Shown: positions 7,880 through 32,375 of the stretch, piece by piece
Layout: each line of letters starts with the position of its first letter
Position numbering within the stretch: the stretch's first letter is position 1
Notes under the pieces: model-generated
What the model saw: only the letters and a program-made list of their open reading frames with translations
Told to the model about the DNA's origin: nothing
Database searches by the model: none
DNA from: an uncultured delta proteobacterium
Lineage (GTDB): Bacteria > Desulfobacterota > Desulfuromonadia > Desulfuromonadales > BM103
DNA: 64,000 bases
Direction of reading: 5' to 3'
Assembly: GCA_963715335.1 (NCBI GenBank)
Contig: CAVQRZ010000005.1
Span: forward strand, 64,001 to 128,000
Program-made: the position numbers and the translations under genes

Positions 7880-7972
7880 AAAAAAAAAGCCCCACAGCCA
7901 GGAGGGGACTGTGGGGCAACGGGTTCTATAGGGTTTTTCTTTAGGAGGTAGAACATGAAGAAAGTATGTTCT
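7880..7972 (-). ncRNA. Candidate ~93-nt sRNA-A, antisense to the RBS/start of the cytochrome c7 gene
   Basis: Own promoter, 5' hairpin AGAACAU/AUGUUCU, internal ACCUCCU, and a terminator with 9-bp stem, loop UCCCCUCCUGG and U9. Confidence 0.7.
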
Positions 7973-7979
7973 GGTTATT

Positions 7980-8007
7980 AGATTACCATTTTGGTCAGAT
8001 ATGTCAA
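7980..8007 (-). promoter_or_regulatory. Sigma70-type promoter of sRNA-A
   Basis: Minus strand reads TTGACA-16 nt-TAATCT with TG in the extended -10 position. Confidence 0.7.
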
Positions 8008-13701: not shown

Positions 13702-13971
13702 ATGAAGAAACTGGTAATCATCATGATGCTGCTGGCGTTCGTCGGTGTCAATGTTGCTATCGCAGCAGACAGCTACACCTACGAGAACAAGAAGGGTAAC
13801 GTTACTTTCGACCACAAGGCTCACCAGGACAAGGTGGGTGACTGTGCCAAATGCCACCAAGGCGAGCCGGCAAAAATTGCTGTCGACAAGGAATACGCCC
13901 ACTCGACTTGCAAAGACTGCCACAAGGACATGAACGGCCCGACCAAGTGTAACGACTGCCACAAGAAGTAA
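13702..13971 (+). CDS. ppcA: Periplasmic triheme cytochrome c7 (PpcA family)
   Basis: Signal peptide, GNVTFDHKAH, three CxxCH motifs, GPTKC; RBS AGGAGG. Which paralog it is cannot be determined. Confidence 0.9.
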   Translation: MKKLVIIMMLLAFVGVNVAIAADSYTYENKKGNVTFDHKAHQDKVGDCAKCHQGEPAKIAVDKEYAHSTCKDCHKDMNGPTKCNDCHKK

Positions 13972-13992
13972 CCTTAACTTACGCAATGCTGC

Positions 13993-14025
13993 AAAAAGGC
14001 CACCGGTTTTAAGGTGGCCTTTTTG
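13993..14025. terminator. Bidirectional intrinsic terminator
   Basis: AAAAAGGCCACC-ggttttaa-GGTGGCCTTTTT between convergent genes. Confidence 0.85.
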
Positions 14026-14070
14026 TTCTTTGATTCCACTCCCAGGCAGCAACGAGTCCCAACTATCTAT

Positions 14071-14988
14071 TCAGAAAATCGACAGCCTGGTCTTGGTTGT
14101 AAACAGTTCCAGAGCCTTGGTCCCTGCGTAAGAGTTCCCGGCTGAATTCAGTGCCGGCGACCACACACACAGAGACATCTGGCCCGGCACAATAGCGACG
14201 ATCCCGCCCCCTACACCGCTTTTTCCCGGCAGGCCGACACGATAGGAAAAATCGCCCGCCGCATCGTAAGTGCCACACGTCAACATAACCGCATTGATCC
14301 GTTTTGCGTGCCTCCGACTGACGATTTCACCAGAGATAGGGGAAACGCCTTGATCCGCCAGGAAAAGGCTCGCCAGGGCCAGTTCTTTGCAGTTCATCAT
14401 CACCGCGCACTGAAAAAAGTAGAAATCAAGAACGTCCTCCACACTGTGCCGAAGATTATCAAAATCCTTGAGCAGGTTGGCCAAGGCCCGGTTGCGATGT
14501 CCGGACTCGATTTCAGCTTTGTAAATGGTCTTCGAAATCTTCATCGAAGGGAGGCCCGTGACTTGTTGTAGAAATGCAAGATACGTTTCCTTGGGGTCGT
14601 CAACGTGGTCAAGGATAATATCCGCAATGACAAGGGCGCCGGCATTGATGAACGGGTTTCGGGGAATTCCGCGCTCATATTCGAGCTGCGTAAGAGCATT
14701 GAAGGGCGTGCCCGAGGGTTCCCTGCCCACCCTCTTCCAGAGCGACGTTCCAACCAGCCGGAATGCCAGCGTCAAAGCAAACAGCTTGGAGATGCTCTGG
14801 ATGGAGAACCTTTCTCCCGCGTCGCCGATCTGACAGGACTGGCCAGCGGTTGTCTGCAGAGCCATGCCGAATTTCTTGCCGGAGACTTTGGCCAGGGGCG
14901 GGATATAGTCCGGAACGGTGCCGCGACCGATCAAGGGCTGGATTTCGCGATGGATCTCATCCAGGACCTCCTGGTAATTCACTGTCAA
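14071..14988 (-). CDS. glsA: Glutaminase
   Basis: DYIP.L, FSIQSISK (SxxK), GREPSG.PFN, NPFINAGA, GKSGVGGG. Confidence 0.95.
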   Translation of the reverse strand: MTVNYQEVLDEIHREIQPLIGRGTVPDYIPPLAKVSGKKFGMALQTTAGQSCQIGDAGERFSIQSISKLFALTLAFRLVGTSLWKRVGREPSGTPFNALTQLEYERGIPRNPFINAGALVIADIILDHVDDPKETYLAFLQQVTGLPSMKISKTIYKAEIESGHRNRALANLLKDFDNLRHSVEDVLDFYFFQCAVMMNCKELALASLFLADQGVSPISGEIVSRRHAKRINAVMLTCGTYDAAGDFSYRVGLPGKSGVGGGIVAIVPGQMSLCVWSPALNSAGNSYAGTKALELFTTKTRLSIF

Positions 14989-15032
14989 CGTCTATACCTC
15001 CTGAAGGGCTGTCGTAGCCGTCCTTGCAACGC

Positions 15033-15908
15033 TCAGCTGATCGCAAGCACGTCAACAGAGACTTTCAACTCATGTTCACCACTACCGAAAGCCACACCTT
15101 TCAACGGTGTCACATCGGTAAAGTCGCGTCCCCAGGCGACTGTAATGTACCGCTCTCCGGGCAGCTGGTTGTTGGTCGGGTCGAAGTCGAGCCAGCCGTG
15201 TTCAGGCAGGTACGCTGAGAACCAGGCATGTGAAGCGTCGGCGCCCACCAGCCGTTCCTTGCCAGGCGGAGGCTCAGTCTCGATGTAACCGCTCACATAG
15301 CGCGCCGCGAGGCCCATGGAACGCAGGCAACCGATCGCCAGGTGGGCAAAATCCTGGCAGACACCGCTACGGTGCTCAAGAACATCTTTTAGTGGAGTCG
15401 CAATGGTGGAGAATTCCGGATCGTAATTGAATTCGTGGAAGATCCTCTGCATCAGGTCACGTACAGCATCGATCAGCGGCCGACCCGGCGAAAAAGATGG
15501 CAGGGCGTAGTCTAAAACCAGGTCATTGACAACAAGCGTAGGCGAATCGAGAACATACTGGGATGCGTCGAGGGCTTCAGCGGACCTGGCGTTACGCAAT
15601 TGTTCCCGGGCCATCTCCCAAGCAAGAATGCCGGCTTCTTCAGGCAGGCTCGCGGCATTGGTCTCGACTTCGCTGGTCGCGGTCACGATCAGTTGGTCAT
15701 GGGGCTGCTGAATGGAGAAATAAGTTGTCCGGTTACCAAAGTAATCAAAGCGTTCGTAATAATCGTATGGCTGCGGTTCGATCAGCAAGCCGGCCGAAAG
15801 GACTTTCTGCTGAGGTAAATCGCGAGGCAGGAGCCTGGCCTCATTGTAACAGAGGCCGACCCGTGCTTCGTAACTGAACTCGGTCGTATGAGTGACGCGG
15901 TATTTCAT
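15033..15908 (-). CDS. Transglutaminase-like protein
   Basis: N-terminal Y.V.H.T...Y domain; GVCQDFAH, HAW and DPT catalytic triad. Confidence 0.92.
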   Translation of the reverse strand: MKYRVTHTTEFSYEARVGLCYNEARLLPRDLPQQKVLSAGLLIEPQPYDYYERFDYFGNRTTYFSIQQPHDQLIVTATSEVETNAASLPEEAGILAWEMAREQLRNARSAEALDASQYVLDSPTLVVNDLVLDYALPSFSPGRPLIDAVRDLMQRIFHEFNYDPEFSTIATPLKDVLEHRSGVCQDFAHLAIGCLRSMGLAARYVSGYIETEPPPGKERLVGADASHAWFSAYLPEHGWLDFDPTNNQLPGERYITVAWGRDFTDVTPLKGVAFGSGEHELKVSVDVLAIS

Positions 15909-18478
15909 ATGTCCTCATCCTGGCGTTGCGGCGACAGCTGCTGATGTGGTTGCGAATGGCTGAAATAGGTGCCGGTGAGCACGTCGGACAATTGCCAGAG
16001 GTTCTCAGTCTGCCTGGAAAGCAATTCTTCCAGCCCCTTGCAGAAGCCATCGCCCTCTTCGATTCTCGACAATTCAACAGCATCGGCCAGACGCAGGGAG
16101 GTAAAGGCTTCGAGGATAGCCCTCTCGTCTGCGCCAAGACGGTGCGACACCTGAGTGCGCGGCAATTCGGCGACGTGGCGCTGCAAGCTATCAAGCTGGA
16201 AAGCCAGAGACCTTGGGTGATGCTGGTCCATCAGAATCAGTTCGAGAACGGTGGGCAGATGCATGTACGAGTGATAACGGCGCCGGAAGGTATTCAGGCT
16301 GTCGCAGATGACCAGCACCGTCTCCATCAGCTGGCGCTTCGTCGTATCATCCATGCCGGGAACTAAGGTGGCACGCAACAGCGAAATTAATCCCAGAGCC
16401 CGTTCCAGCCGTCGACCGATGTCGAGCAGCAGCCATCCGGCTTCCCGGGTCATGCTCTCAGAAGTCAGGCCACTGAATGCAACCAGCTGCATGATCAGGT
16501 GGTCAAGGCGGTCCTGGGTACGATGGCTCCCCGTGCCAGGGTCTTCCTCGTCAACAACCCAATCCTGCCGGATCGCGTCGATGATCCTCCAGATTTCGGT
16601 CGGCCAGTGGTCCCTGACGGTCATGGCAACCTGGCCAAAGGCCTGCAGGGTCGACGTCAGGCTGCCGCTCCGGTGCGCATCCTGCAACAGGGAGCGCAGC
16701 TCAGGGCGAGGCTGCTCCAGAAGCTTTTCAGCCCCCTCATCGACAAATCCCGGGTAAGTTCCGGTCACATGGGTCAGAGCGCGCAACAGGTTGTGAAGGT
16801 AGGAGATAGGCCTCCCGCCGTTGGCATCACGCAACTCCCTCCGGAGCAGATAGATGGCCCGCAACAGGCGGGCCGTCCCCTCAGCCCTCTCGACGTAGCG
16901 GCCGGCCCAGAACAGGTTGTCCGCAGCACGGCTCGGCAGTGGCTCGATGCGAAACTGCAGGACCTGGTCTTCTTTCGGCTGCCTCCATAGGCTGACGTAT
17001 TCAACCGGTTCATTCGACAGGACCCAGGCGTCCTTGCTCAAACCGCCGGCCCGGTTGGAAACCACCAGCTCTCCTTCCCGGGCGGCAATCCGCGTCAGAC
17101 CGCCAGGCATGGCGATATAGCCATCCTCGCCGGCCACCAGGAAAGAACGAAGCACCGCGTGACGCGGCTCAACCTGACCATCAACCAGCGACGGGGCGGT
17201 CGAAAAACTGACCATTTCCTGGCCGGTGTAAAGATGCGGTTTGTGCAGAATGCGCGCGCGCAATTCGGCCTGTTCGGCTTGTGTCAATTGAGCACCAAAA
17301 ACCGAACGGTAACCCCGTGTGCGGTGAATCGTCTTTATGACCAGCTTTTCCAGATTCTCGAGAACGAACCGACGTTCATTCTCCTGACCACACCACCAGG
17401 TCGCAACCGAGGGAAGCTTGAGGTCTTCGTCAAAGAAGTGCTTCGCAATCCCTGGGAGGAACGCCAGCAGCCCAGGGTTTTCCAGCACACAACTGCCGAT
17501 CGGGTTGGCAATCGCCACGTGGCCGAGACGGGCCGACTGCATCAGTCCGGTCACGCCGAGCCGGGAGTCCTCCCGCAGTTCCAGCGGATCGCAATAGGCA
17601 TCATCGACGCGACGCAGGATCACGTCAACCTGGTGCAATCCCTCCAGAGATTTGAGCCAGACCCGCCCGTCGCGGACGCTCAGGTCATCGCCCTGGACCA
17701 ATGTATAGCCGAGGTAATTGGCAAGGTAGGCGTGTTCGAAGTAGCTCGGGCTGTAGGGCCCGGGTGTCAGGACCACGATCCGCGGGTCTTCCCGATTCTG
17801 CGGCGCAAGGCTGGCGAGACGGTCCCGGAAAGGCTGGAAGAAGCCGGCCAGCCGTCGGACATGGCAGGCACGAAAGAGCGCCGGGGCGATGCGCGTCATG
17901 ACCATGCGGTTTTCCAGCGCATAACCGGCCCCGGAAGGAGTCTGCGCACGGTCATCGATTACCCACATGCGACCGTCCGGACCACGGGCAAGGTTGGAAG
18001 AGCAGATGGTCAGTGAGCGACCACCGTTGGTGATCGACCCGACGCAGGAGCGCTGGAAACCGGCGTGGCCGAATACCAGCTCAGGCGGCAGGAGGCCTTC
18101 GAGCAAAAGCTGCTGGGGACCGTAGATATCAGCCAGAATCAGGTTGAGCAGTTCCGCCCGCTGGACCAGGCCGGCCTCTATAACCGACCACTCCTCGGCA
18201 CTGATGAACAGAGGGATCGGGTCAAGCTCCCAGGGGCGGGCCATACCGCGCAGCCCGTCGTAGATATTGAAGGTGACGCCGTTCTCACGCAGCAGGCGCT
18301 GGGCCTCCAGGTGGCGGCGTTCAAGCCCCTCCCGGCCGAGCTGGTCGAGCTCCTGCATGAGGGTTTGCCAGTGGGGGAGAATGCTCCCCTCACCGGCATA
18401 CAACTCGTCATAGGCTTCGAGCCTGGGGGCGTAATACTGGGCAATTGACTCGGAAATCTGGTTATCGGGCTGTTCCAC
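15905..18478 (-). CDS. Circularly permuted type 2 ATP-grasp protein fused to an alpha-E domain
   Basis: PSGAGYALENR, YFEHAYLA, RRVDD...DPLE, MPGGLTR, SKDAWV; then PSRAADNLFWAGRYVERAE and GRRLER. Confidence 0.9.
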   Translation of the reverse strand: MEQPDNQISESIAQYYAPRLEAYDELYAGEGSILPHWQTLMQELDQLGREGLERRHLEAQRLLRENGVTFNIYDGLRGMARPWELDPIPLFISAEEWSVIEAGLVQRAELLNLILADIYGPQQLLLEGLLPPELVFGHAGFQRSCVGSITNGGRSLTICSSNLARGPDGRMWVIDDRAQTPSGAGYALENRMVMTRIAPALFRACHVRRLAGFFQPFRDRLASLAPQNREDPRIVVLTPGPYSPSYFEHAYLANYLGYTLVQGDDLSVRDGRVWLKSLEGLHQVDVILRRVDDAYCDPLELREDSRLGVTGLMQSARLGHVAIANPIGSCVLENPGLLAFLPGIAKHFFDEDLKLPSVATWWCGQENERRFVLENLEKLVIKTIHRTRGYRSVFGAQLTQAEQAELRARILHKPHLYTGQEMVSFSTAPSLVDGQVEPRHAVLRSFLVAGEDGYIAMPGGLTRIAAREGELVVSNRAGGLSKDAWVLSNEPVEYVSLWRQPKEDQVLQFRIEPLPSRAADNLFWAGRYVERAEGTARLLRAIYLLRRELRDANGGRPISYLHNLLRALTHVTGTYPGFVDEGAEKLLEQPRPELRSLLQDAHRSGSLTSTLQAFGQVAMTVRDHWPTEIWRIIDAIRQDWVVDEEDPGTGSHRTQDRLDHLIMQLVAFSGLTSESMTREAGWLLLDIGRRLERALGLISLLRATLVPGMDDTTKRQLMETVLVICDSLNTFRRRYHSYMHLPTVLELILMDQHHPRSLAFQLDSLQRHVAELPRTQVSHRLGADERAILEAFTSLRLADAVELSRIEEGDGFCKGLEELLSRQTENLWQLSDVLTGTYFSHSQPHQQLSPQRQDEDI

Positions 18479-18526
18479 GGCAGGGGCCTCGTAGCGTCAA
18501 CATGGCATTGATTATCCTCGGCCCGA

Positions 18527-21500
18527 TTATATTCCAGGAAGGCGTCGCAAATCCACGGTATAAGGGAACTCTTCGTTCGGTTCTTCTTCAGGTGGCGTCA
18601 TCGGTCCTGTCGAACCAGTGATAGGCGTAAAAGTACCAAGTCCGACAAATGCGGGCGGGGCTGTCTGTACCGAACCCGGCTCAGCGCCAAGATCCCAGAA
18701 CCGGGTGATGCGACGGGCTTCGGCCTCAAAGGCATTGACCGGGAAGACGTCGTAACTGCGTCCTCCCGGGTGGGAGACGTGGTAGGTGCAGCCGCCGATC
18801 GCCTGGCCGCTCCAGGTGTCGACAATATTAAAGACCAGCGGCGAGTGCGGCTTGATCGTCGGATGCAGCGCCGAAGGCGGCTGCCATGCCCGGTAACGGA
18901 CGCCGACGACAAATTCGCCCTTGCGACCGGTGCTGCGCAAGGCCAGTCGCCGACCATTGCAGACCACGACGTGACGCAGTTCGGTCAGCCCATTGATCCG
19001 CAGTTGCAGCCGCTCTACAGAAGAGTCGACAAACCGGGCGGTTCCCTGGCTCCCCATCTCTTCACCAAGCACGTGCCAGGGCTCAATAGCGAAGCGCAGC
19101 TCGAGCTCCATGGCATCGATATTCACAGAACCGAAGTGCGGAAAGCGGAACTCGAGGAACGGTTCAAACCATTCCAGTTCAAACGGGTAGCCCGCCCGGT
19201 TCAGGTCAACCACTACTTCCCGCATATCCTCACGGACAAAGTGCGGCAGCAGGAACCGATCGTGGAGCTCCGTGCCCCAACGCACCAGATCGTGCTCATA
19301 GGGCTTTTCCCAGAACCAGGCCACCAGGGTACGCAGGAGCAGGTTCTGCACCAAGCTCATACGGGCGTGAGGGGGCATCTCGAAAGCACGCATTTCAACC
19401 AGGCCGAGGCGTCCCGAAGAGCTGTCGGGGGAGTAAAGCTTGTCGATGCAGAACTCGGCGCGGTGGGTGTTGCCGGTCATGTCGATCAAAAGGTTGCGCA
19501 GCAGCCGGTCAACCAGCCAGGGGGCAGGCACCTCCCCTTTCGGCATCTGCTGGAACGCGATTTCGAGTTCATAAAGCGCGTCATTGCGTGCCTCGTCGAC
19601 GCGCGGGGCCTGGCTGGTCGGGCCAATAAACATTCCGGAGAAGAGATAGGAGAGCCCCGGATGGTGCTGCCAGTAGGTGACCAGGCTGCGCAGCAGGTCG
19701 GGCCGTCGCAGCACCGGACTGTCGGCCGGGGTCGCCCCGCCGATCGTGATATGGTTGCCGCCGCCGGTTCCGGAATGGCGGCCGTCGAGCATGAACTTCT
19801 CCGTACCAAGACGGCTCTGACGGGCCTCCTCGTAGAGGATCGTGGTGTTGTCCACCAGTTCCCGCCAACTGGCCGCCGGGTGGATATTGACTTCGATGAC
19901 GCCCGGGTCAGGGGTCACAAGCAGGCGCTCCAGGCGATAGTCCCGCGGCGGCTCATAGCCTTCGATGACCACTGGCATGGACAACTCTGCAGCGGTCGCC
20001 TCAATCGTCGCTACCAGGTCCAGGTAATGTTCGAGCTTCTTCAGCGGTGCCATAAAAACATGCAGGCGGCCGTCACGAGCTTCGACGCAGAGTGCCGTGT
20101 GAGGGATCTTGATCAGAGCATCCCCGCGGCGCTCATCAGCGAGCGGTTGTTCGTGAACTTCCGGATGGGCCATCACCGGCTTTTCAACCTTGCTGTACCT
20201 TTTCGCGACTTCGCCATGGGCATCCTCAAGAACCGGCAAGGCTGCGAACTGGTCGTGCTCGGCGCTAACTTCCCGTTTCTCTGGAGCCTCCCATGGCAGT
20301 GAATCAAGCGGCAGGCGCAGGCCCATCGCTGATCCGCCCGGAATCAGGAACATCTGTCCCCGACGGAACTCCCAGGGGCCGCTGTACCAGCCGCCGCTTT
20401 TTGCGTCCCACTGTAGCGGCAGAGCATAGCCGGACGGCGTTCCGAGTCCCTTGTCCAGCAACTTGGCCAGATACTGGCGTTCAAGAGAGTCTTTGAGATC
20501 GACCTTGAGCGGGTCGACATTATCCGGCAGAGTACCCTCTTTCCACAGGTAATAGAAAACATCCTCATAGCCCGGCACCACCCGTCGCGGATCAACCCCA
20601 AGACGTCTCGCCAGTTCGCTGGCGAAGCGTTCGGCGTGCTCATGAGTTATGTCGTAACTCTTGGCAATATTGGCGAGCAACTCAGGGTTCTTCCACACCG
20701 GAACACCGTCCTTGCGCCAGAAACAGCCGTAAGCCCAGCGCGGCAGCTGTTCGCCGGGATACCATTTCCCCTGGCCGAAGTGCAGCAACCCACCACTGCT
20801 GAATGACTCACGTAGACGGCGGACCAGGTTGTTGGCCAACTCCCTTTTGTGCGGACCATCAGCCTTGGTGTTCCATTCATCACCTTCCATATCATCGATC
20901 GATACGAAAGTCGGCTCACCGCCCATGGTCAGGCGGACATCTCCGCTGGTCAGGTCGGCGTCGACCTGCTCTCCCAGAGCATCAATCCGTGCCCATTGCT
21001 CATCGCTGTAGGGTTTGGTCACCCGCGGGTCTTCGTGGATACGCTTGACGCTGTTTTCGAAATCGAAGGTCACCTCGCACTTGTCCATAGAACCTGTAAC
21101 CGGAGCCGCACTGGAGTAATGCGGTGTACAGGCCAGCGGGATATGACCTTCTCCGGCAAGCAGCCCGGAGGTCGGGTCAAGTCCGATCCAGCCTGCACCG
21201 GGGATATAGACCTCGGCCCAGGCGTGCAGATCGGTAAAATCGACCTCGGTACCGGAGGGCCCGTCGAGCGATTTCTCATCGGCAGTCAGCTGGATCAGGT
21301 AGCCCGAAACAAAACGCGCCGCCAGCCCCAGATGGCGCAGGATCTGCACCAGCAGCCAGCCCGAGTCCCGACAGGATCCGATCTTCCGTTCAAGGGTCTC
21401 TTCGGCGGTCTGTACCCCGGGCTCCATGCGCACGGAGTAATTGACCGACTCGCGGACCATCTGGTTCAGGTTGACCAGGAAATCAACGGTCGTGGTCGGT

Positions 21501-21910
21501 GAACGATCGATCTTTTCCAGCCAGGCACTCAGCAGCGGTCCACTGTCGGTTATCTCGAAGTAAGGCGTCAGTTCCTTGCGCAATTGGGCTTCGTAAGTAA
21601 AAGGGATTTTCTCGGCAGATTCTTCAACAAAAAAATCGAACGGGTTGATGACGGTCATGTCGGCGACCACCTCGACCTCGATTCTCAGCTCGCGGGTCTT
21701 CTCAGGAAACACCAGCCGCGCCAGGTAGTTGCCAAAGGGGTCCTGCTGCCAGTTGAGAAAATGCGTATCGGGAGCGATGCGCATTGCATAGGCACGGATC
21801 GGGGTCCGCGAATGCGGTGCCGGCCGCAGGCGCAGGACGTGCGGCGAGAGGTTGATCGGCCGGTCAAAGCGGTAATGCGTGATGTGCCTGCAGGCAACGC
21901 GGATGGACAT
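18527..21910 (-). CDS. Transglutaminase-like domain fused to a putative amidoligase (DUF2126-type)
   Basis: GSCRDSG/HAW/DPT triad, then GGEPTF, DPGVIEVN, GGGNH, HRAEFCIDK. Confidence 0.88.
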   Translation of the reverse strand: MSIRVACRHITHYRFDRPINLSPHVLRLRPAPHSRTPIRAYAMRIAPDTHFLNWQQDPFGNYLARLVFPEKTRELRIEVEVVADMTVINPFDFFVEESAEKIPFTYEAQLRKELTPYFEITDSGPLLSAWLEKIDRSPTTTVDFLVNLNQMVRESVNYSVRMEPGVQTAEETLERKIGSCRDSGWLLVQILRHLGLAARFVSGYLIQLTADEKSLDGPSGTEVDFTDLHAWAEVYIPGAGWIGLDPTSGLLAGEGHIPLACTPHYSSAAPVTGSMDKCEVTFDFENSVKRIHEDPRVTKPYSDEQWARIDALGEQVDADLTSGDVRLTMGGEPTFVSIDDMEGDEWNTKADGPHKRELANNLVRRLRESFSSGGLLHFGQGKWYPGEQLPRWAYGCFWRKDGVPVWKNPELLANIAKSYDITHEHAERFASELARRLGVDPRRVVPGYEDVFYYLWKEGTLPDNVDPLKVDLKDSLERQYLAKLLDKGLGTPSGYALPLQWDAKSGGWYSGPWEFRRGQMFLIPGGSAMGLRLPLDSLPWEAPEKREVSAEHDQFAALPVLEDAHGEVAKRYSKVEKPVMAHPEVHEQPLADERRGDALIKIPHTALCVEARDGRLHVFMAPLKKLEHYLDLVATIEATAAELSMPVVIEGYEPPRDYRLERLLVTPDPGVIEVNIHPAASWRELVDNTTILYEEARQSRLGTEKFMLDGRHSGTGGGNHITIGGATPADSPVLRRPDLLRSLVTYWQHHPGLSYLFSGMFIGPTSQAPRVDEARNDALYELEIAFQQMPKGEVPAPWLVDRLLRNLLIDMTGNTHRAEFCIDKLYSPDSSSGRLGLVEMRAFEMPPHARMSLVQNLLLRTLVAWFWEKPYEHDLVRWGTELHDRFLLPHFVREDMREVVVDLNRAGYPFELEWFEPFLEFRFPHFGSVNIDAMELELRFAIEPWHVLGEEMGSQGTARFVDSSVERLQLRINGLTELRHVVVCNGRRLALRSTGRKGEFVVGVRYRAWQPPSALHPTIKPHSPLVFNIVDTWSGQAIGGCTYHVSHPGGRSYDVFPVNAFEAEARRITRFWDLGAEPGSVQTAPPAFVGLGTFTPITGSTGPMTPPEEEPNEEFPYTVDLRRLPGI

Positions 21911-21944
21911 AAACTGAATAACTCCCTGGGAATCCGTCTGATGA

Positions 21945-22934
21945 TCAGATCCCTAGCTCTGTGATTGATCTTGCACGGCAGAGGTTGCCGAGGAAATCGA
22001 GAAGAAACGTCTCGAAAACAACTTTACTTACGTCATTCAGGCGGGTCTGCAAGTCGTCGATAAACTCGTGAAGGCCAATCGCCTTGATGTCGTCAATGGT
22101 CGTGTAATCGAGGTCTGCCAGCAGACGCCCGAGCGTCTTTTCAGCGCGGTTGGTAAAGCGGCCGCGCATGGTCCCCGAAATATTGCGCAGCGATAGCTCC
22201 GCGATAATCAGGCAATGGTGAATCGCCCGCGGGAACTCGGCGTCAAGCACCATGAACTCGATAATCTGGTCGGGAACAATCTGGCCATAATCCTTGCGAT
22301 ACATTTCGAAGGCGCTGGCTGAACGCAGGATCGACCCCCAGAGGATGTGATCGTAAGGCGTGCCGACATACTCTACTGAAGGCAGCAGAATAAAATACTT
22401 GACGTCGATGATCCGGGCGGTCTTGTCTGCCCTCTCGAGCATCCTGCCGAGCCGGGCAAACTGCCAGCCATCACCGTGAGTCATGGTGTTCTGCGACAGC
22501 CCGGTAAAGAGATGGCTGGCGAGCATGACTTCAACAAAGAATTCGTGCGGGAGTTCAATCCCACCGCTGTTACGTGAGGCCTCCTTGACGAGCAGGTAGA
22601 AGGTGTTGACCTGCTGCCACATCTCGGAGCTGATCCATTCACGTACCGAGCGGGCATTTTCCCTGGCCATCTGCAGGCAGGAAAGAATCGAATTGGGATT
22701 TCTGGTGTCGAATGTCAAAAACTGGACAACGTTCTCCTCGTTGAAATCGTCGTAGAATTTTTTGAACAGGTCTTCGTCGCCGGTCGTCACGATCAGCGGC
22801 TCCCACTGCTCGCCAACGCCGCTTGGCAGGTCAAGGATCATGTGATAGTTGGCGTCCATGATCCGCGCCACGTTTTCAGCCCGCTCGACATAGCGGGCCA
22901 TCCAGTACATCGATTCAGCAACACGGCTCAGCAT
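21945..22934 (-). CDS. Alpha-E domain protein (C-terminus possibly frameshifted; corrected stop at 21953)
   Basis: [44 protein letters not shown]. Confidence 0.9.
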
Positions 22935-24391
22935 GCGGCACCCCCTTCCATGACCGAACGGTCCTCGACCACCCAGGTATCCTTGCTGCCGCCGCCCTGG
23001 CTCGAGTTGACCACCAGGGAGCCCTTCTTCAACGCAACCCGGGTCAGGCCGCCGGGCATGACATAGATCTCCTCACCGTAGAGGATATAGGGGCGCAAGT
23101 CGACGTGCCGACCTTCGAAGTGATCGTCAATCAGGGTCGGCACCCGTGAGAGCGCGAGGGTCGGCTGGGCAATGTAATTGCGCGGATTGGCCTTGACCTG
23201 CTCGGCGTATTCGGCGCGCTCCTTCGAACTGGCGTGCGGCCCGACCAGCATGCCGTAGCCGCCCGACTCTCCGACTTTCTTCACCACCAGCTTGTCGAGA
23301 TTGGCCAACACGTGCTGCAAGTCCTTGTCGCGCCAGCAAAGATAGGTCTCGACATTATTGAGGATCGCGTCCTGGTCGAGATAGTAGCGGATCATCTCCG
23401 GGACATAGGCGTAGATGGCCTTGTCGTCGGCCACCCCGGTCCCCGGGGCGTTGGCCAGAGCGACGCGACCGGCGCGGTAGGCACGCATCAGGCCCGGGAC
23501 ACCGAGCATCGAGTCTTTGCGAAACACCTCCGGATCGATGAAATCGTCGTCGATACGCCGGTAGAGGACATCGATCGGTTTCAGACCTGCCGTCGTACGC
23601 ATCATGACACGGTCGTCAACCACCACCAGATCACTCCCCTCCACCAGTTCGATCCCCATCTGTTGAGCGAGGAAGGAATGTTCGAAGTAGGCCGAGTTGT
23701 AGACACCGGGCGTCCAGACCGCGACCACGGGTTTGTCACGGCGCGGCGGCGCGAGGAACTGCAGGAGCTCCAGTAGGCGGTTCGGGTAATCAACCACCGG
23801 CACGACGTGTGCGGCATCGAAGGCGCGCGGAAAGCTGCGTTTCATGACCACGCGGTTTTCAAGCACATAAGAGACACCCGACGGGCAGCGCAGGTTGTCT
23901 TCGAGCACATAGAACTGCCCGTCAGCGCCGCGTACCAGGTCGGTCCCGGTGATATGGCACCAGACGCCGCCCGGGGGATTGAGACCTATACATTCCGGGC
24001 GATAACCGCTCGCCGACAGGACCAGGTCCTTCGGGATGATGCCATCCTTGAGAATTCTCTGATCATGGTAGAGATCGTCGATAAAGAGGTTGAGAGCCTG
24101 GACTCTCTGTTTGAGTCCGGCCTCCATAACGATCCATTCGTTATGAGCGATAATGCGCGGAACAATGTCGAAGGGGAAAATCCGCTCCGTGCCCTGCTCA
24201 TCTCCGTAAACGCTGAACGTGATCCCCATCTGCAACAGGGCTTTCTCTGCCGACTGCTGGCGGCGCCGGAGCTCTTCAAGGGGCAATTCGTTGAATCGAC
24301 TGACCACGGCTTCAGTGCCGGGGCGAGGGCGCCCTTCCGCATCGAACATCTCGTCGTAGAAACCGTCGAGCGAATAATTTTCAAATTGCAT
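22928..24391 (-). CDS. Circularly permuted type 2 ATP-grasp protein
   Basis: [56 protein letters not shown]. Confidence 0.92.
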
Positions 24392-24525
24392 ACCGGGTCC
24401 TTTCGTTGGCAGGGGAATATGAAGGAGATAGCCTTACGATTCAAGCCTATTCTGTGTATTATCAAATATTTTCAGTTGTTAATGATTTTCTGTTTCAAGA
24501 TAATCAGGGTCGCAATTTGCTGCTT

Positions 24526-24554
24526 ATTATACCATACTTGAAAAATCTGTGGAA
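24526..24554 (-). promoter_or_regulatory. Extended -10 promoter of the ATP-grasp operon
   Basis: Minus strand TG-g-TATAAT (24534-24526) with a weak TTCCAC 17 nt upstream. Confidence 0.55.
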
Positions 24555-24618
24555 GACGCCGGCGGCCGCCAGGCATTGCCGTGTTGCAGTGAATTCCCGC
24601 CGCGCATAGAATGGGGCC

Positions 24619-25257
24619 ATGAATTATCGCTATATCTTCTGGGACAACGATGGTGTGCTTGTCGATACGGAACGGTTTTATCTCCAGGCCAGCAGGGAAG
24701 CGCTCGCCAGGGTCGCCATTGAACTGAGCGACGAACAGTTCGCGGAGATTTCGCTGGCAGCGGGACGCAGCATCTTCGATCTCGCGGCCGGGTCCGGGGT
24801 CTCCGAGCAGTCAGTCACCGCTTTGAAAGAGTGGCGGGAAAAGCGCTATGCGAAACTTCTCTGGCAAGAGGACATTTCTCTCGACGGGGCAGCTGAGGTA
24901 CTGAATATGCTCCACGGCAGACTCGGCATGGCTGTCGTGACAAGCTCACGGAAGCATCACTTCGACATTATCCACAGCAGGACGGGTTTTCTGCCTTATT
25001 TCGACTTCTGCCTGACACGCGAGGACTACACCAACAGCAAGCCCTCAGCAGAACCGTACCAACTGGCCTTGAAACGCAGCGGGATTGAAGCAGGAGAGGT
25101 CCTCGTGATTGAAGATTCGCCACGGGGTTTGAGAGCGGCGAAAGCTGCCGGGCTGGCATGCTGGGTCCTGCCGGGACATCACACCTCAGGGCAGGATTTT
25201 GCCGAAGCCGACAGGATTCTCTCTGATATCAGGGACGTCATGGATATCACCTCGTGA
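24619..25257 (+). CDS. HAD-family phosphatase
   Basis: DNDGVLVDTE, TSS, KP, EDSPRG motifs. Confidence 0.9.
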   Translation: MNYRYIFWDNDGVLVDTERFYLQASREALARVAIELSDEQFAEISLAAGRSIFDLAAGSGVSEQSVTALKEWREKRYAKLLWQEDISLDGAAEVLNMLHGRLGMAVVTSSRKHHFDIIHSRTGFLPYFDFCLTREDYTNSKPSAEPYQLALKRSGIEAGEVLVIEDSPRGLRAAKAAGLACWVLPGHHTSGQDFAEADRILSDIRDVMDITS

Positions 25258-25306
25258 GACATTCCAGACAGCTCACTTTTTTCTCACATTTTTCTCAAAA
25301 ATACTC

Positions 25307-25335
25307 TTGCCAAGAACTTTCTGCTTTGATATATT
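25307..25335 (+). promoter_or_regulatory. Sigma70-type promoter of sRNA-B
   Basis: TTGCCA-17 nt-TATATT with extended TG; AT-rich upstream. Confidence 0.65.
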
Positions 25336-25341
25336 TCAGCC

Positions 25342-25417
25342 AACTCTTCGATTGCCTGCAAGCCGAAGAGCTTTGGACCCCGCGTATCCCCCCCCTCCTT
25401 ACGCGGGGTCTTTTTTT
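25342..25417 (+). ncRNA. Candidate ~76-nt sRNA-B with anti-SD terminator loop
   Basis: 5' stem CUCUUCG/CGAAGAG; 11-bp stem GACCCCGCGUA/UACGCGGGGUC, loop U-C8-UCCU, then U7. Confidence 0.65.
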
Positions 25418-25466
25418 GTCTTTTGCCGTCGCACTGCGCTGTCCCTGTGTCATCCTCGATTTTCTC

Positions 25467-25495
25467 TTGACGGATCCCCAAAAATTTCTTAGGAT
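25467..25495 (+). promoter_or_regulatory. Sigma70-type promoter of sRNA-C
   Basis: TTGACG-17 nt-TAGGAT. Confidence 0.65.
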
Positions 25496-25501
25496 TCACT
25501 C

Positions 25502-25566
25502 ATGTTCCCCTGACAATGGTCAGGGCTTTTGCCCCGTGATTCCCCTCCTTCGCGGGGCCATTTTTT
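25502..25566 (+). ncRNA. Candidate ~65-nt sRNA-C with anti-SD terminator loop
   Basis: 5' stem CCCUGAC/GUCAGGG; stem GCCCCGUGA/UCGCGGGGC, loop UUCCCCUCCU, then U6. Confidence 0.62.
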
Positions 25567-25578
25567 ACCCCTCCGTCG

Positions 25579-27231
25579 TCAAATTCTGAACGCCCGTAAC
25601 AGATGGGGCATCAGCTGCTTCTTCCTCGACAACACCCCTCTCAGGTCAAACCTGCCTGTAGCAATTTGCGGATAACCGACTGCAGAGATCAGGTCCTTCT
25701 CGCCACGAACGATCAACTGGCTGTTCTGTTGCACGATATCGGTCACCAGTAAGCCGGCCAGGGCCAGGCTGCGCTTCTCTGCAAGCGCTTGCAAGCCGGA
25801 GGAGATCTCTTCCAGGCGGTCGTCGAACTCCTGAAAAGTTACAACTTCAACCTGCCCGACGCCAAATCGCCTGCCTTCAACATCATATTCCTTGAAGTCG
25901 GCGGTCAGCAGCGACTCGATATCCGGATAGGCCGCAAGAGCGCTTCCAGCCTGGAACATCTGCCGGCCAAAAGCCGACGCATCCAACCCTGAGCATTGCT
26001 CCAGCCAGCCCAGCAGTTCCCGATCGGCATCGGTTGTCGTCGGCGACTTCAAGAGGACCGTATCGGACAATAATCCCGCCAGCATCAGAGCCGCAATCTT
26101 CGGTGCCGGGTCAATCCCTGCCTGCCGATAGAGCGTCGCAACCACGGAACAGGTACTTCCCAGTGGCTGGTTGATAAAGCGAATCGGCAGTTCCGTATGA
26201 AAATTACCCAGCCGGTGATGATCGATGATTTCCAGGATTTCTACCTGATCCGCACCTGGAACCGCCTGGGTCAGCTCATTATGATCGACCAGAATCAGCT
26301 TCAGGGGTGATGGCCTGAGCAGGTTGGTTTTGGTGCCGACTCCGCAAACCCTGCCATTGTCATCAATGACCAGCACTCCGGGGGCCGTACTGCGCATCAA
26401 GACCTTGCGAATTTCGTCAAGCCGGTCGTCAGGGTGCGCGCGCGGGACATCTGCTTCGGCCAGATATCGAACCGGCGTCGACAATCTCGCCAGCATGGCA
26501 CTGGTTGCCGTGTCGTAGGGCGAGCAAAGGACGGAAACCTGCTTTTCTCGGGCCAACATGACCAGGTCTTCATCGACAGGAAGATCTCCGGTTACGACCA
26601 GCAGTCTGATGCCAAGCTGAATGGCATGTTCCAGAATATTCCGGCGATCGCCGACAAAGACGACAATCCGCTGTGGGTCAACCTTTGCTAACCGCGCCTG
26701 GAAGCTCTGCGGAGACATTGCGCCGACAAACAGCTCGAGCTCCCCGGTGCGTTCGCCGTCTACCATGTTAATCGCAGTTGCCTGCAGGCAGGTCTGTATG
26801 GATTTCGGTGAAGAAAGCACCTGGCGAATCGGTTTGCCTGCGCGCGGCAGCAGGATATGTTCTGTCATACGTTTCAGGATCATGGCTCCGAGCGGGGCAC
26901 CATCGGTATCAACGACAGGGAGCATGCGGATATCGCGCTGGCGCATCAGTTCAAGGGCATTCGCCAGCGGGGCATCGGCATCGATCAGCGCCGGGCAATC
27001 TCCCACCGTGTCGCGCAATCGCGGGTAGACATCGGTCAAGAGTTGCGGCTGCAATTGCCCGATGGTATCAAGGACAAATTCAGTCTGCCTGTTAAGCCCG
27101 CCGGCCCGTCCCGGAAAGACGTTGCTTCTTCCCTGTAGCTGGCACAGCGCTGCATATGCAATTGCGCTGCAGATCGAATCCGTATCCGGGTTTCTATGGC
27201 CGACCACAAAAACTCTCTCCTGCTGGCTCAT
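25579..27231 (-). CDS. ppaC: Mn-dependent inorganic pyrophosphatase with CBS-DRTGG insert
   Basis: GHRNPDTDS, VDHNE, IDHH, SDT..LKSPTTT, SRKKQ. Confidence 0.92.
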   Translation of the reverse strand: MSQQERVFVVGHRNPDTDSICSAIAYAALCQLQGRSNVFPGRAGGLNRQTEFVLDTIGQLQPQLLTDVYPRLRDTVGDCPALIDADAPLANALELMRQRDIRMLPVVDTDGAPLGAMILKRMTEHILLPRAGKPIRQVLSSPKSIQTCLQATAINMVDGERTGELELFVGAMSPQSFQARLAKVDPQRIVVFVGDRRNILEHAIQLGIRLLVVTGDLPVDEDLVMLAREKQVSVLCSPYDTATSAMLARLSTPVRYLAEADVPRAHPDDRLDEIRKVLMRSTAPGVLVIDDNGRVCGVGTKTNLLRPSPLKLILVDHNELTQAVPGADQVEILEIIDHHRLGNFHTELPIRFINQPLGSTCSVVATLYRQAGIDPAPKIAALMLAGLLSDTVLLKSPTTTDADRELLGWLEQCSGLDASAFGRQMFQAGSALAAYPDIESLLTADFKEYDVEGRRFGVGQVEVVTFQEFDDRLEEISSGLQALAEKRSLALAGLLVTDIVQQNSQLIVRGEKDLISAVGYPQIATGRFDLRGVLSRKKQLMPHLLRAFRI

Positions 27232-30397: not shown

Positions 30398-31203
30398 CAG
30401 CAGAAGCCCATGAGCCTGGCCGCAACATCCTGCGGCTTGCTCAGAAACGGCGCATGCCCGATGCCGTGGAATGGCACGTATTCTCCGTGAGGAAGCATGT
30501 CCGCCATGGCCTGTCCGGCACCGACCGGCGAGATCCGGTCAAGTTCACCGTGCAGCACCATCGCAGGGATACGGATGTTGTAGAGGATGTCGCGTTGATC
30601 CTGTTCGGCCAGCATGTTGAGGAGCGCAATGGCAACCTCCTGATCAGGTAAAGAGCTGGCCCGCACCGCAAAATTGCGGATCGTCCGCAACCTGTCGATC
30701 GAGATTCTTTCGCCGGCGAAGGTCAGGGCAAAGAACTCGGCCAAGGTTGATTCGAACTGCCTCTTGAGATTTCTGACCATGGCACGGACCTGGCTGACCG
30801 GCAGACCGAACGGCCAGTCGTTGCCCGCAGTGAACTTCGGCGTCGAACCGATCAGTACCAGCCGATTCACCGCAAGTTGCCCCTCACTGGCGATCTGCAA
30901 GGAGAGCATCCCCCCCAGAGACCAGCCTGCCAGTGTAACCGGTTCTGTTTCAAGAGCCGCCAACCAGTCCGTCAGGACAGCAGTAAGCCCGGCAAGATCA
31001 TTCCGCCCGGCAGGCGAAGACTTACCATGACCTGGAAGGTCCGGGACCAGAACACGGAAATTCACGGCGAGCAGGCCGGCGAGTTCCTGGAAGGCCGCCG
31101 CCGACATGGCCCAGCCGTGCAAGAGCACCAGCGGCCTGCCCTGACCGGTCTCGTACCAGGTCAGTTGACGTCCGTCAGTACGCTGGAACTGTCTTGCCCT
31201 CAT
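30397..31203 (-). CDS. bioH: Pimeloyl-ACP methyl ester carboxylesterase
   Basis: LLHGW, DLPGHG, GWSLGG, GHAPFLS; lies between bioF and bioC. Confidence 0.85.
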   Translation of the reverse strand: MRARQFQRTDGRQLTWYETGQGRPLVLLHGWAMSAAAFQELAGLLAVNFRVLVPDLPGHGKSSPAGRNDLAGLTAVLTDWLAALETEPVTLAGWSLGGMLSLQIASEGQLAVNRLVLIGSTPKFTAGNDWPFGLPVSQVRAMVRNLKRQFESTLAEFFALTFAGERISIDRLRTIRNFAVRASSLPDQEVAIALLNMLAEQDQRDILYNIRIPAMVLHGELDRISPVGAGQAMADMLPHGEYVPFHGIGHAPFLSKPQDVAARLMGFC

Positions 31204-32375
31204 CCGGTGCACTCGCCGTAAACATCAAGGATTTTTCCAACCGCGGCCGACAGTTCGGTTAGCGAGTGACTGGCCATGACGGTTGCCCGCAACCGACAGA
31301 GCCCGGGGGGCACGGTAGGTGGTCGAACCCCCTGCAGAAAAACCCCTTTTTCGAGAAGCCGTTCCGTCATTTTCATGGTCGATTCTGGTTCCCGCGTCAA
31401 CACTGGAACGATCTGGGTGGTACTGCCGAGCAGATCCATTCCACCAGCTGTCAACAGCCCGGCGAACAGGGTGCGATTCTCATCAAGCTTCCGGCGAAGA
31501 CGCCGTCCTTCATCGCTGTCAACCAGCTCAAGTGCGGCCAAGGCCGCGGCCGGAACTCCTGGCGGCAGGCTGGTAGAGAAGATGAAAGAGCGGCTGCGAT
31601 TGATCAGCGTGTCGATGATGACCCGGTCTGCAGCCAGGTAAGCGCCTGCGCAACCAAGGGCCTTGCCGAGCGTTCCCATATGCAGGTCGATGCGCTCGAG
31701 ACAGCCAAGAGCTTCGCCGGTCCCTCGGCCGTTCCGACCCGAAACGCCGGTTCCGTGGGCATCATCCACCATCAGCAGTGCGTCAAACTGGTCTTTCAGG
31801 TCACAAAGCTCAGGCAATGGGGCAACATCCCCATCCATACTGAAAACACCATCGGTGACAATCAGCCAGCGACCCTTACGCAAGGGCTTTTCCCGCGCCA
31901 TGAGTTCTGCCAGGGCGACGTGGTCACAGTGGGGGTAAACCACTGTGCGTGCGCGGGCCAATCTACACCCATCAATGATGGAGGCATGATTCAGCTGATC
32001 AGAAAAAATAAGATCATCAGGGCCGAACAGCCCTTGCAGAATCCCGGTATTTGCGGCATATCCCGAGTTGAAGAACAAAGCTGCCTCGGTCCCCTTGAAT
32101 GTTGCGAGGCGCGCTTCGAGTTCAGCGTGGACCGGCATCGTTCCGGAAATCAGACGACTGGCGCCGGAGCCGGCACCATATCGCACCGTGGCATCAATCA
32201 TCTTCTTCACCAGGGTCGGGTGATTGGCGATACCGAGATAGTTATTGGAGCAAAGCAGCAAAACGTTGCGGCCGTTGATCTGCACCCTCGGACCCTGGCC
32301 ACCATCAATAACCCTCAGGGAACGCAACATCCCCTGGCGCTGGAGCCGGGCCAGATCATCTTGCCAGTTATCCAT
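31200..32375 (-). CDS. bioF: 8-amino-7-oxononanoate synthase
   Basis: SNNYLG, GSGASRL, NHASIIDG, FSMDGD, DDAH, TLGKA. Confidence 0.95.
   Translation of the reverse strand: MDNWQDDLARLQRQGMLRSLRVIDGGQGPRVQINGRNVLLLCSNNYLGIANHPTLVKKMIDATVRYGAGSGASRLISGTMPVHAELEARLATFKGTEAALFFNSGYAANTGILQGLFGPDDLIFSDQLNHASIIDGCRLARARTVVYPHCDHVALAELMAREKPLRKGRWLIVTDGVFSMDGDVAPLPELCDLKDQFDALLMVDDAHGTGVSGRNGRGTGEALGCLERIDLHMGTLGKALGCAGAYLAADRVIIDTLINRSRSFIFSTSLPPGVPAAALAALELVDSDEGRRLRRKLDENRTLFAGLLTAGGMDLLGSTTQIVPVLTREPESTMKMTERLLEKGVFLQGVRPPTVPPGLCRLRATVMASHSLTELSAAVGKILDVYGECTG

Follow-up and report, generated by a model that had tools for sequence, protein, structure and literature searches.

Between two convergent genes of an uncultured member of the Desulfuromonadales lie two small RNA (sRNA) genes, which we call A and B, and which are very probably stand-alone sRNA genes of this order, each with its own sigma70 promoter and its own intrinsic terminator. 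Judged from their sequences, they are probably a pair of uncatalogued sRNAs whose mechanism is of a known kind. As an overall reading, we lean towards A and B being anti-Shine-Dalgarno (anti-SD) sRNAs, with a third RNA, C, encoded elsewhere in the genome, as the sponge of A.

The gap is part of a stretch of 64,000 nucleotides that was analysed as a whole (the window), and extends from the stop of a HAD gene on the plus strand, at 25257, to that of a ppaC-like gene on the minus strand, at 25579. The relevant features are:

24619..25257, plus strand: HAD-superfamily hydrolase gene (TIGR01509 above cut-off), often, though not always, the upstream neighbour of A
25307..25335, plus strand: sigma70-type promoter of A, TTGCCA-17-TATATT with an extended -10 (TG), from the promoter scan
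25342..25417, plus strand: sRNA A, ~76 nt, with a predicted 5' end
25344..25370, plus strand: 5' hairpin of A, which holds GCCUGCAAGC (25354-25363) and CUCUUCG (25344-25350)
25375..25417, plus strand: terminator of A, with the invariant C7-UCC anti-SD loop (25387-25399)
25467..25495, plus strand: sigma70-type promoter of B, TTGACG-17-TAGGAT, from the promoter scan
25502..25566, plus strand: sRNA B, ~65 nt, with a predicted 5' end
25508-25525, plus strand: 5' hairpin of B, from folding
25531-25566, plus strand: terminator of B, with the loop CCCCUCCU (25540-25549)
25579..27231, minus strand: CBS-domain Mn-dependent inorganic pyrophosphatase gene (ppaC-like), convergent (NF011445 above cut-off)

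The promoter scan returned three promoter-like sites in 2 kb, against 0.7 +/- 0.8 in shuffled sequences. Both units fold as two hairpins, A (25342-25418) at -32.7 kcal/mol (z -6.3) and B (25502-25567) at -29.4 kcal/mol (z -4.9), and none of 200 shuffles was as good in either case. The U-tails of both are present on the plus strand only, and the +1 positions were placed from the sequence. The two terminators are missing from the terminator scan because their loops, of 13 nt in A and 10 nt in B, are longer than the 8-nt limit of that scan. The initial annotation had described two tandem promoter-hairpin-terminator units in this gap between convergent genes, each with a 5' hairpin and an anti-SD terminator loop, and the promoter scan and the folding bear this description out. 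Four RNA runs gave a single 151-nt contig, located within ppaC and outside the gap, which is uninformative either way.

The units are conserved far beyond the source genome. The region was matched by DNA search in 24/24 genomes of the same family, and the pattern matches fall mostly in the Desulfuromonadales. A covariance model of A found matches in 74 of 121 genomes of the order, many of them as pairs 130-350 bp apart, and the fetched loci show the A-then-B pair in many other families. The A-type terminator pattern is present in 70 of 151 genomes of the order, a count that takes in look-alike paralogues of one family (f12) and a few non-hairpin matches, and that of B in 42 of the 151, always as a single copy, with an A-pattern match within 400 bp upstream on the same strand in 21 of the 42. 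B is patchy in the source family, being recognised by pattern in 8 of 27 genomes and missing from the other 19. Its terminator pattern, the only one used in the search of the wider phylum, occurred with up to two mismatches in none of 300 other genomes, three of which belong to the order. A strict promoter rule holds for A at 44/55 loci and for B at 29/30, compared with 68 of 1700 random positions. Possession of a promoter and an intrinsic terminator, together with conservation in relatives, is what is expected of sRNA genes, and supports the earlier proposal of two independent promoter-driven sRNAs. In two loci of the same genus (L004 and L005) A is intact, but B no longer has the anti-SD loop, and its stem and its U-tail are weakened, so that it appears to be decaying. 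In another family (f19; L094, L095 and L097) there is no A before B; instead, one or two additional units of promoter and RNA, whose terminator loop is CUCCUCCCU, lie downstream of B.

The two terminators have been conserved in different ways. The stem of the A terminator covaries, with two-sided changes at 9 of 12 pairs (39 cells; 0/500 shuffles, and far lower values in slid controls), and its loop, CCCCCCCUCC (C7-UCC), is invariant, so that A presents an invariant unpaired C-rich motif on a stem that is free to vary. In B the loop is likewise invariant, and the stem is nearly frozen, with zero two-sided changes. The 5' hairpins had been suggested to be different regions for perhaps different targets, which is not supported in that form across the order: outside the source family they keep their fold and change in sequence, and only the loops are fixed. 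Since the 5' hairpins vary and the loops do not, the terminator loop is the likely seed. By analogy with characterised sRNAs, we consider it rather likely that the working part of A and B is this unpaired C-rich loop, which in A would pair with GGAGGGGG-like and in B with AAGGAGGGG-like ribosome-binding sites (RBS) and so prevent translation from starting, probably together with Hfq. In this view the 5' hairpin would serve mainly to protect the 5' end.

Within the source family the 5' hairpin of A is almost invariant, and its complement is found not in an mRNA but in RNA C. This RNA was found by searching the genome for a direct repeat that stands above the -35 of A:

25271..25299, minus strand: direct-repeat box with an 11-bp period, TGAGA-N6-TGAGA plus a weaker third repeat, just upstream of the -35 of A
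Contig C19 of the source genome (G000), about 174965-175070, plus strand, and locus L184, 665-771: RNA C, ~105 nt, ending in a terminator, located by box search
Contig C19 of G000, about 174926-175070, plus strand, and L184, 627-771: RNA C including its direct-repeat box promoter, between a receiver-BTAD regulator gene and a gene that, from a motif, we take to be glgC-like

The promoter of C has the box, read the opposite way to that of A, in place of a -35, plus an extended -10. By DNA search C was matched in 26 of 44 genomes of the family, a few of these being weak partial matches, and four more C-bearing genomes were recognised by synteny or pattern, giving a total of ~30. The block G-N-UUGCAGGC is present in 30/30 extracted homologues, its inner seven letters, UUGCAGG, having been the extraction key and the flanking G and C not, and the sequence to either side drifts. 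A second block further downstream, GAGAG or AAGAG, is found in 29 of the 30. The two blocks are the complements, in antiparallel order, of A 25354-25363 and of A 25344-25350, and a genome search for this two-block pattern gives just two places, C and the strand opposite A. The duplex between the 5' parts of A and C has an energy of -26.6 to -31.9 kcal/mol in all 15 extracted pairs (18 pairs were tried and three dropped, C not having been extracted), with 0-3 of 200 shuffles as good, and the co-fold gain is -5.6 to -12.9. At the variable position, which is compatible in every pair compared, C has U wherever unit A has residue A opposite (four genomes). Cognate A-C pairs have no advantage over swapped ones (permutation fraction 0.81), so that co-evolution of A and C is unsupported. 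The extended complementarity between these two stand-alone RNAs is nevertheless conserved in the source family, and on this evidence we regard the pairing as probably real. C would pair with the 5' hairpin of A through the 10-nt block and the second block of 6-7 nt and open the hairpin; granted the pairing, C may on balance be taken, by analogy, for a sponge that removes A. In three loci (L305, L306 and L308) a second box-preceded unit with a conserved AUUUCCUGCCUCC and a hairpin follows the regulator gene; it is a candidate fourth RNA, which lies behind C or, in genome G124, replaces it.

The box provides a possible link between the two promoters. Upstream of A it stands in reverse at 23 of the 25 loci of the family, against 1 of 30 other loci, and a strict pattern gives only two boxes in the genome. 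A more inclusive matrix, built from forward boxes with a -10 behind them (with C in the training set and A not), gave 30 intergenic sites above 13 bits, the C promoter ranking first and the A promoter second (26.1 bits). The 11-bp-period heptamer repeats cover the -35 at C, and at A they are reversed and lie upstream of it. A SARP box, as described elsewhere, consists of heptamers repeated across the -35 (PMC10972967). Upstream of C lies a gene for a receiver-BTAD protein with Response_reg and BTAD matches above cut-off, for which no DNA-binding-domain match was obtained in Pfam and no informative solved relative was found; read by eye, the box is also present behind a homologue of this regulator in three of eight genomes of other families. 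The receiver-BTAD (SARP-like) protein is thus a plausible candidate, which we mildly favour, for the regulator of the box at C and A. It would bind the box that replaces the -35 of C and the reversed one above the -35 of A, and the box being common to both promoters, one signal would act on both, raising C and changing the transcription of A. Up to eight promoters have the box in family f6. In the source genome other boxes followed by a -10-like site are found on contigs C29 (48282, minus), C28 (23554, plus), C15 (19481, plus) and C1 (285706, minus), the one on C29 preceding a short RNA with AAACGACCUCCAU and a terminator.

The roles of A and C could also be reversed. In that case C would be the effector sRNA, with an unstructured seed and a U-tailed terminator, acting on mRNA targets that contain GCCUGCAA, and the 5' loop of A would be a target mimic that sponges C, the terminator loop of A keeping an older function. 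The seed of C is indeed invariant while its flanks drift, and conservation of both partners would suit a seed that has more than one target. Moreover, 2 of 2738 start windows of 32 nt pair with the 5' part of C better than A does (-35.8 and -33.0 against -31.9), and for the 18-nt seed of C alone at least six leaders equal or beat A; one of the leaders with equal or better seed pairing is the start of a transglutaminase-like gene at window position 21910. The seed is partly self-paired in the predicted fold of C. Against this reading, the second block of C matches the stem of A and not a generic site, and A is order-wide, whereas C was found in the source family only: it was not seen behind the regulator homologues of eight genomes of other families (ten were searched, two of them without a homologue). 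We therefore consider C as effector unlikely, and keep to C as the sponge of A. The better-pairing start windows, the partly self-paired seed and the lack of preference for cognate pairs count against the sponge reading as well, as do the eight genomes just named and two of five extra A-bearing genomes of the family (G008 and G124), in which C was not seen behind the regulator gene.

If A and B are anti-SD sRNAs, their mRNA partners are expected among genes with G-rich leaders. Target prediction had been suggested as a check; run on 2750 crudely called genes of the source genome with the loops and 5' ends of A and B, it returned as best partners pqiA, bioF and a receiver-PilZ gene, which simply have the most G-rich leaders. 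The bioF-like gene (31200-32375, minus strand), whose leader ends in ten G, is among the best predicted partners of both loops. The motif GGAGGGGGG-N-ATG is present in 139 of the 151 order genomes, with or without A. Among the G-rich-SD genes of relatives no target recurs, with at most two matches per gene over 70 loci (30 plus 40 picked from 150 matches listed of about 780), and in these comparisons no conserved mRNA target of A or B was found at an RBS. Control in cis of the neighbouring cytochrome gene by A or B was rejected, the loops pairing poorly with its leader (-7 to -14 kcal/mol, 30 loci).

A and B are not the only units of this type in the genome. Between its genes lie 356 strong terminator-like hairpins. 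CCUCC is located within the loop or next to it in 19 of them, compared with 0-8 for control pentamers, leaving aside the overlapping CUCCU at 13, and a promoter lies 75-170 nt upstream in 12 of these 19, against 12 of the other 337. The assembly has a contamination of 6.87%, and a number of genes are present on more than one contig as identical or nearly identical copies (C15/C28/C41, C4/C5 and others), so that copy counts in this superfamily are possibly inflated. Further CCUCC-loop units are located on the minus strand of contigs C5 (53051), C15 (11924 and 30314), C19 (100863) and C28 (15988), and on the plus strand of C15 (24840) and C28 (28442), and have an internal AACCUCCU segment and a common upstream sequence. 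One multicopy group of candidate sRNAs, which we call subfamily I, is represented in the window:

7880..8007, minus strand: subfamily I unit, a ~93-nt RNA with a TTGACA promoter overlapped by a TGACY-N5-RGTAA box
Contigs C1 (94242), C6 (77776), C6 (111301), C28 (57853) and C43 (6139) of G000: other subfamily I units
13702..13971, plus strand: triheme cytochrome c gene, found 0.5-1.2 kb before A at 14 of 30 loci of the family

The unit in the window combines the CCCCUCCU terminator loop with a 5' part antisense to SD-AUG-MKK, a segment shared by five subfamily I copies. The six promoters in the genome have a common TGACY-N5-RGT(A/T)A box, presumably IscR/Rrf2-like, and subfamily I-like units occur in four other families, with up to about nine exact seed matches in some relatives. 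Of the five copies with this segment, four give the same three best leaders out of 2738, which belong to the triheme cytochrome at 13702, an octaheme cytochrome and an MtrB/PioB porin. For the single copy that was shuffled, randomised versions retaining the anti-SD and anti-AUG letters never placed two such genes among the best three (0 of 60). The triheme cytochrome gene is a top predicted target of subfamily I and not of A or B. Pairing of the subfamily I seed with the cytochrome leaders of relatives is uneven (-11 to -31), and these targets are therefore a lead only. More tentatively, an undescribed post-transcriptional layer may exist in the Desulfuromonadales, in which an anti-SD-loop terminator has been reused with different promoters and 5' modules. 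A and B would be ancient loop-only members, A being wired to a SARP-like response regulator via C, and the multicopy subfamily I would act on translation initiation, silencing genes for electron transfer in the periplasm and outer membrane (an MtrB/PioB porin and the triheme and octaheme cytochromes). This wide reading is possible, and we hold it with distinctly less confidence than the readings of A, B and C themselves.

The same loops might instead bind a protein. A and B would then be real RNAs whose anti-SD loop is a decoy for a ribosomal, hibernation or KH protein that reads the 3' end of 16S rRNA, and not a seed for mRNAs. The invariance of the loop alone and the lack of a conserved mRNA target in our searches would agree with this, as would the B stem, frozen without covariation, and the GAU-N-CCCCUCCUUC of B, which resembles the 3' tail of 16S rRNA. 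Subfamily I, with the same loop, nonetheless carries a clear antisense copy of SD-AUG, which points to base-pairing, and the known sRNAs with C-rich loops, in the work available to us, pair with mRNA. CsrA, the usual protein titrated by sRNAs, was not found in the source genome, and it binds GGA loops, not C-rich ones (PMC11934962, in the part used here). A protein decoy is accordingly quite improbable, and pairing of the loops with mRNA remains our preferred account.

The gene neighbourhood bears on whether these elements are simply the terminators of HAD and ppaC, with incidental promoters. Convergent genes need terminators, and from the HAD stop to A the scan picked out no further terminator (among loops of up to 8 nt), so that HAD read-through probably ends at A. 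The promoters are, however, conserved at a fixed distance and the loop is invariant; in relatives A is kept without HAD and behind another terminator, and B persists before a gene of the same direction and has been lost from genomes in which ppaC remains. Where a cytochrome gene precedes A with no HAD between them, a separate terminator-like hairpin intervenes in 4/4 loci. Conservation of the gap next to ppaC had been proposed as a test, and stands only in part: A and B are conserved well beyond ppaC, which lies downstream of A in the source family alone. The link to ppaC is incidental, because of this restriction and of the absence of B, by pattern, from most genomes of that family. Plain terminators thus fit the conservation poorly, and we find this explanation very improbable. 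In many relatives cytochrome, HAD and A lie within 1.2 kb; in the window (13702-24619) a cluster of circularly permuted ATP-grasp, alpha-E and transglutaminase-like genes parts the triheme cytochrome gene from HAD.

The A and B units contain no conserved ORF. B opens here with ATG-TTC-CCC-TGA, of which start and stop are absent from some homologues, and neither of the two minus-strand AGGAGG motifs has a start codon at ribosome-binding distance, which ruled out small-peptide readings of A, B and their antisense strands. A short unit of promoter and terminator with an anti-SD segment is what a type I antitoxin typically looks like, but antitoxin RNAs, or the ends of a mobile repeat, are hardly tenable here and also fit the conservation poorly, since the antisense AGGAGG motifs are without the small ORF expected on the opposite strand, A and B occur essentially as single copies and keep their synteny in many families, and the phage collection gave no match.

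Two order-wide sRNA families, and a predicted pair of sRNA and sponge that share an operator and a candidate regulator, are proposed for a group of sulfur- and metal-reducing bacteria, together with ~19 wider units, one subfamily of which is predicted to act on cytochrome and porin genes used in metal respiration. If true, this would be the first sRNA control of extracellular electron transfer in the Desulfuromonadales. Although Hfq is present in the source genome and in 148 of 151 genomes of the order, we found no characterised base-pairing sRNA of the order, nor these RNAs, in the literature searched, which left subscription journals outside. The genome papers of G. metallireducens and P. 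carbinolicus (PMC2700814, PMC3543383) do not annotate the A and B units in the text or the supplement parts checked; six supplementary files of PMC2700814 and alignments given as pictures lie outside this, so that an earlier "conserved sequence" label is possible. The G. sulfurreducens CsrA paper, in the part used here, mentions only predicted CsrB-type RNAs (PMC11934962).

In Rfam 15 no family reached the gathering cut-off in the window (6C, Pseudomon-1/ErsA, anti-hemB and ar14 included), nor in the loci of 20 relatives or in RNA C. The best shape matches are Pseudomonas ErsA (RF01719), which has a CCCUCC loop, and Burkholderia anti-hemB (RF02837), both a hairpin plus a terminator, with scores well below cut-off (25.8-33.1 against 50, and 20-33.6 against 49.5). 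Closer in architecture is the 6C/B11 RNA of Actinobacteria (RF01066), with two hairpins, about 75 nt and a C-run in the 3' loop that pairs with a G-rich RBS (PMC6486639, in the part used here). Its two loops are C-rich, whereas in A this is true of the second loop only; the first loop of B is C-rich in many homologues, a further likeness, but not here. The 6C score is 24.6 against a cut-off of 47, and the host here has Hfq. The Cuckoo/CcsR RNAs of Alphaproteobacteria share an invariant anti-SD loop on covarying stems, but have CCUCCUCCC in each of their 2-4 hairpins (PMC4615179, in part), whereas the loops of A and B are C7-UCC and CCCCUCCU and are confined to the terminator. A and B are not members of the 6C, cuckoo, ErsA or anti-hemB families. 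They bear on a question raised in the cuckoo paper, namely whether anti-SD-loop RNAs are general translation dampers or regulators of specific leaders (PMC4615179).

Two further systems resemble parts of the proposed mechanism, as far as the portions of the papers at our disposal describe them. LhrC1-5 of Listeria are multicopy sRNAs in which a CU-rich motif of the terminator loop helps to bind the target, and their expression depends on a response regulator, which we count as a likeness (PMC4132741). The LhrC copies are near-identical and have three redundant motifs, whereas A and B are two different RNAs and A has one loop; no sequence relation between LhrC and A or B was found. In Bacillus subtilis RosA sponges RoxS (PMC8216469): as predicted for C and A, a stand-alone RNA pairs with an sRNA that has C-rich regions and opens its 5' stem-loop, and the partner is under its own transcription factor. 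RosA, however, binds the C-rich regions themselves, whereas C is predicted to pair with the 5' hairpin of A, which is not C-rich, and A and C, unlike RosA and RoxS, share one operator type.
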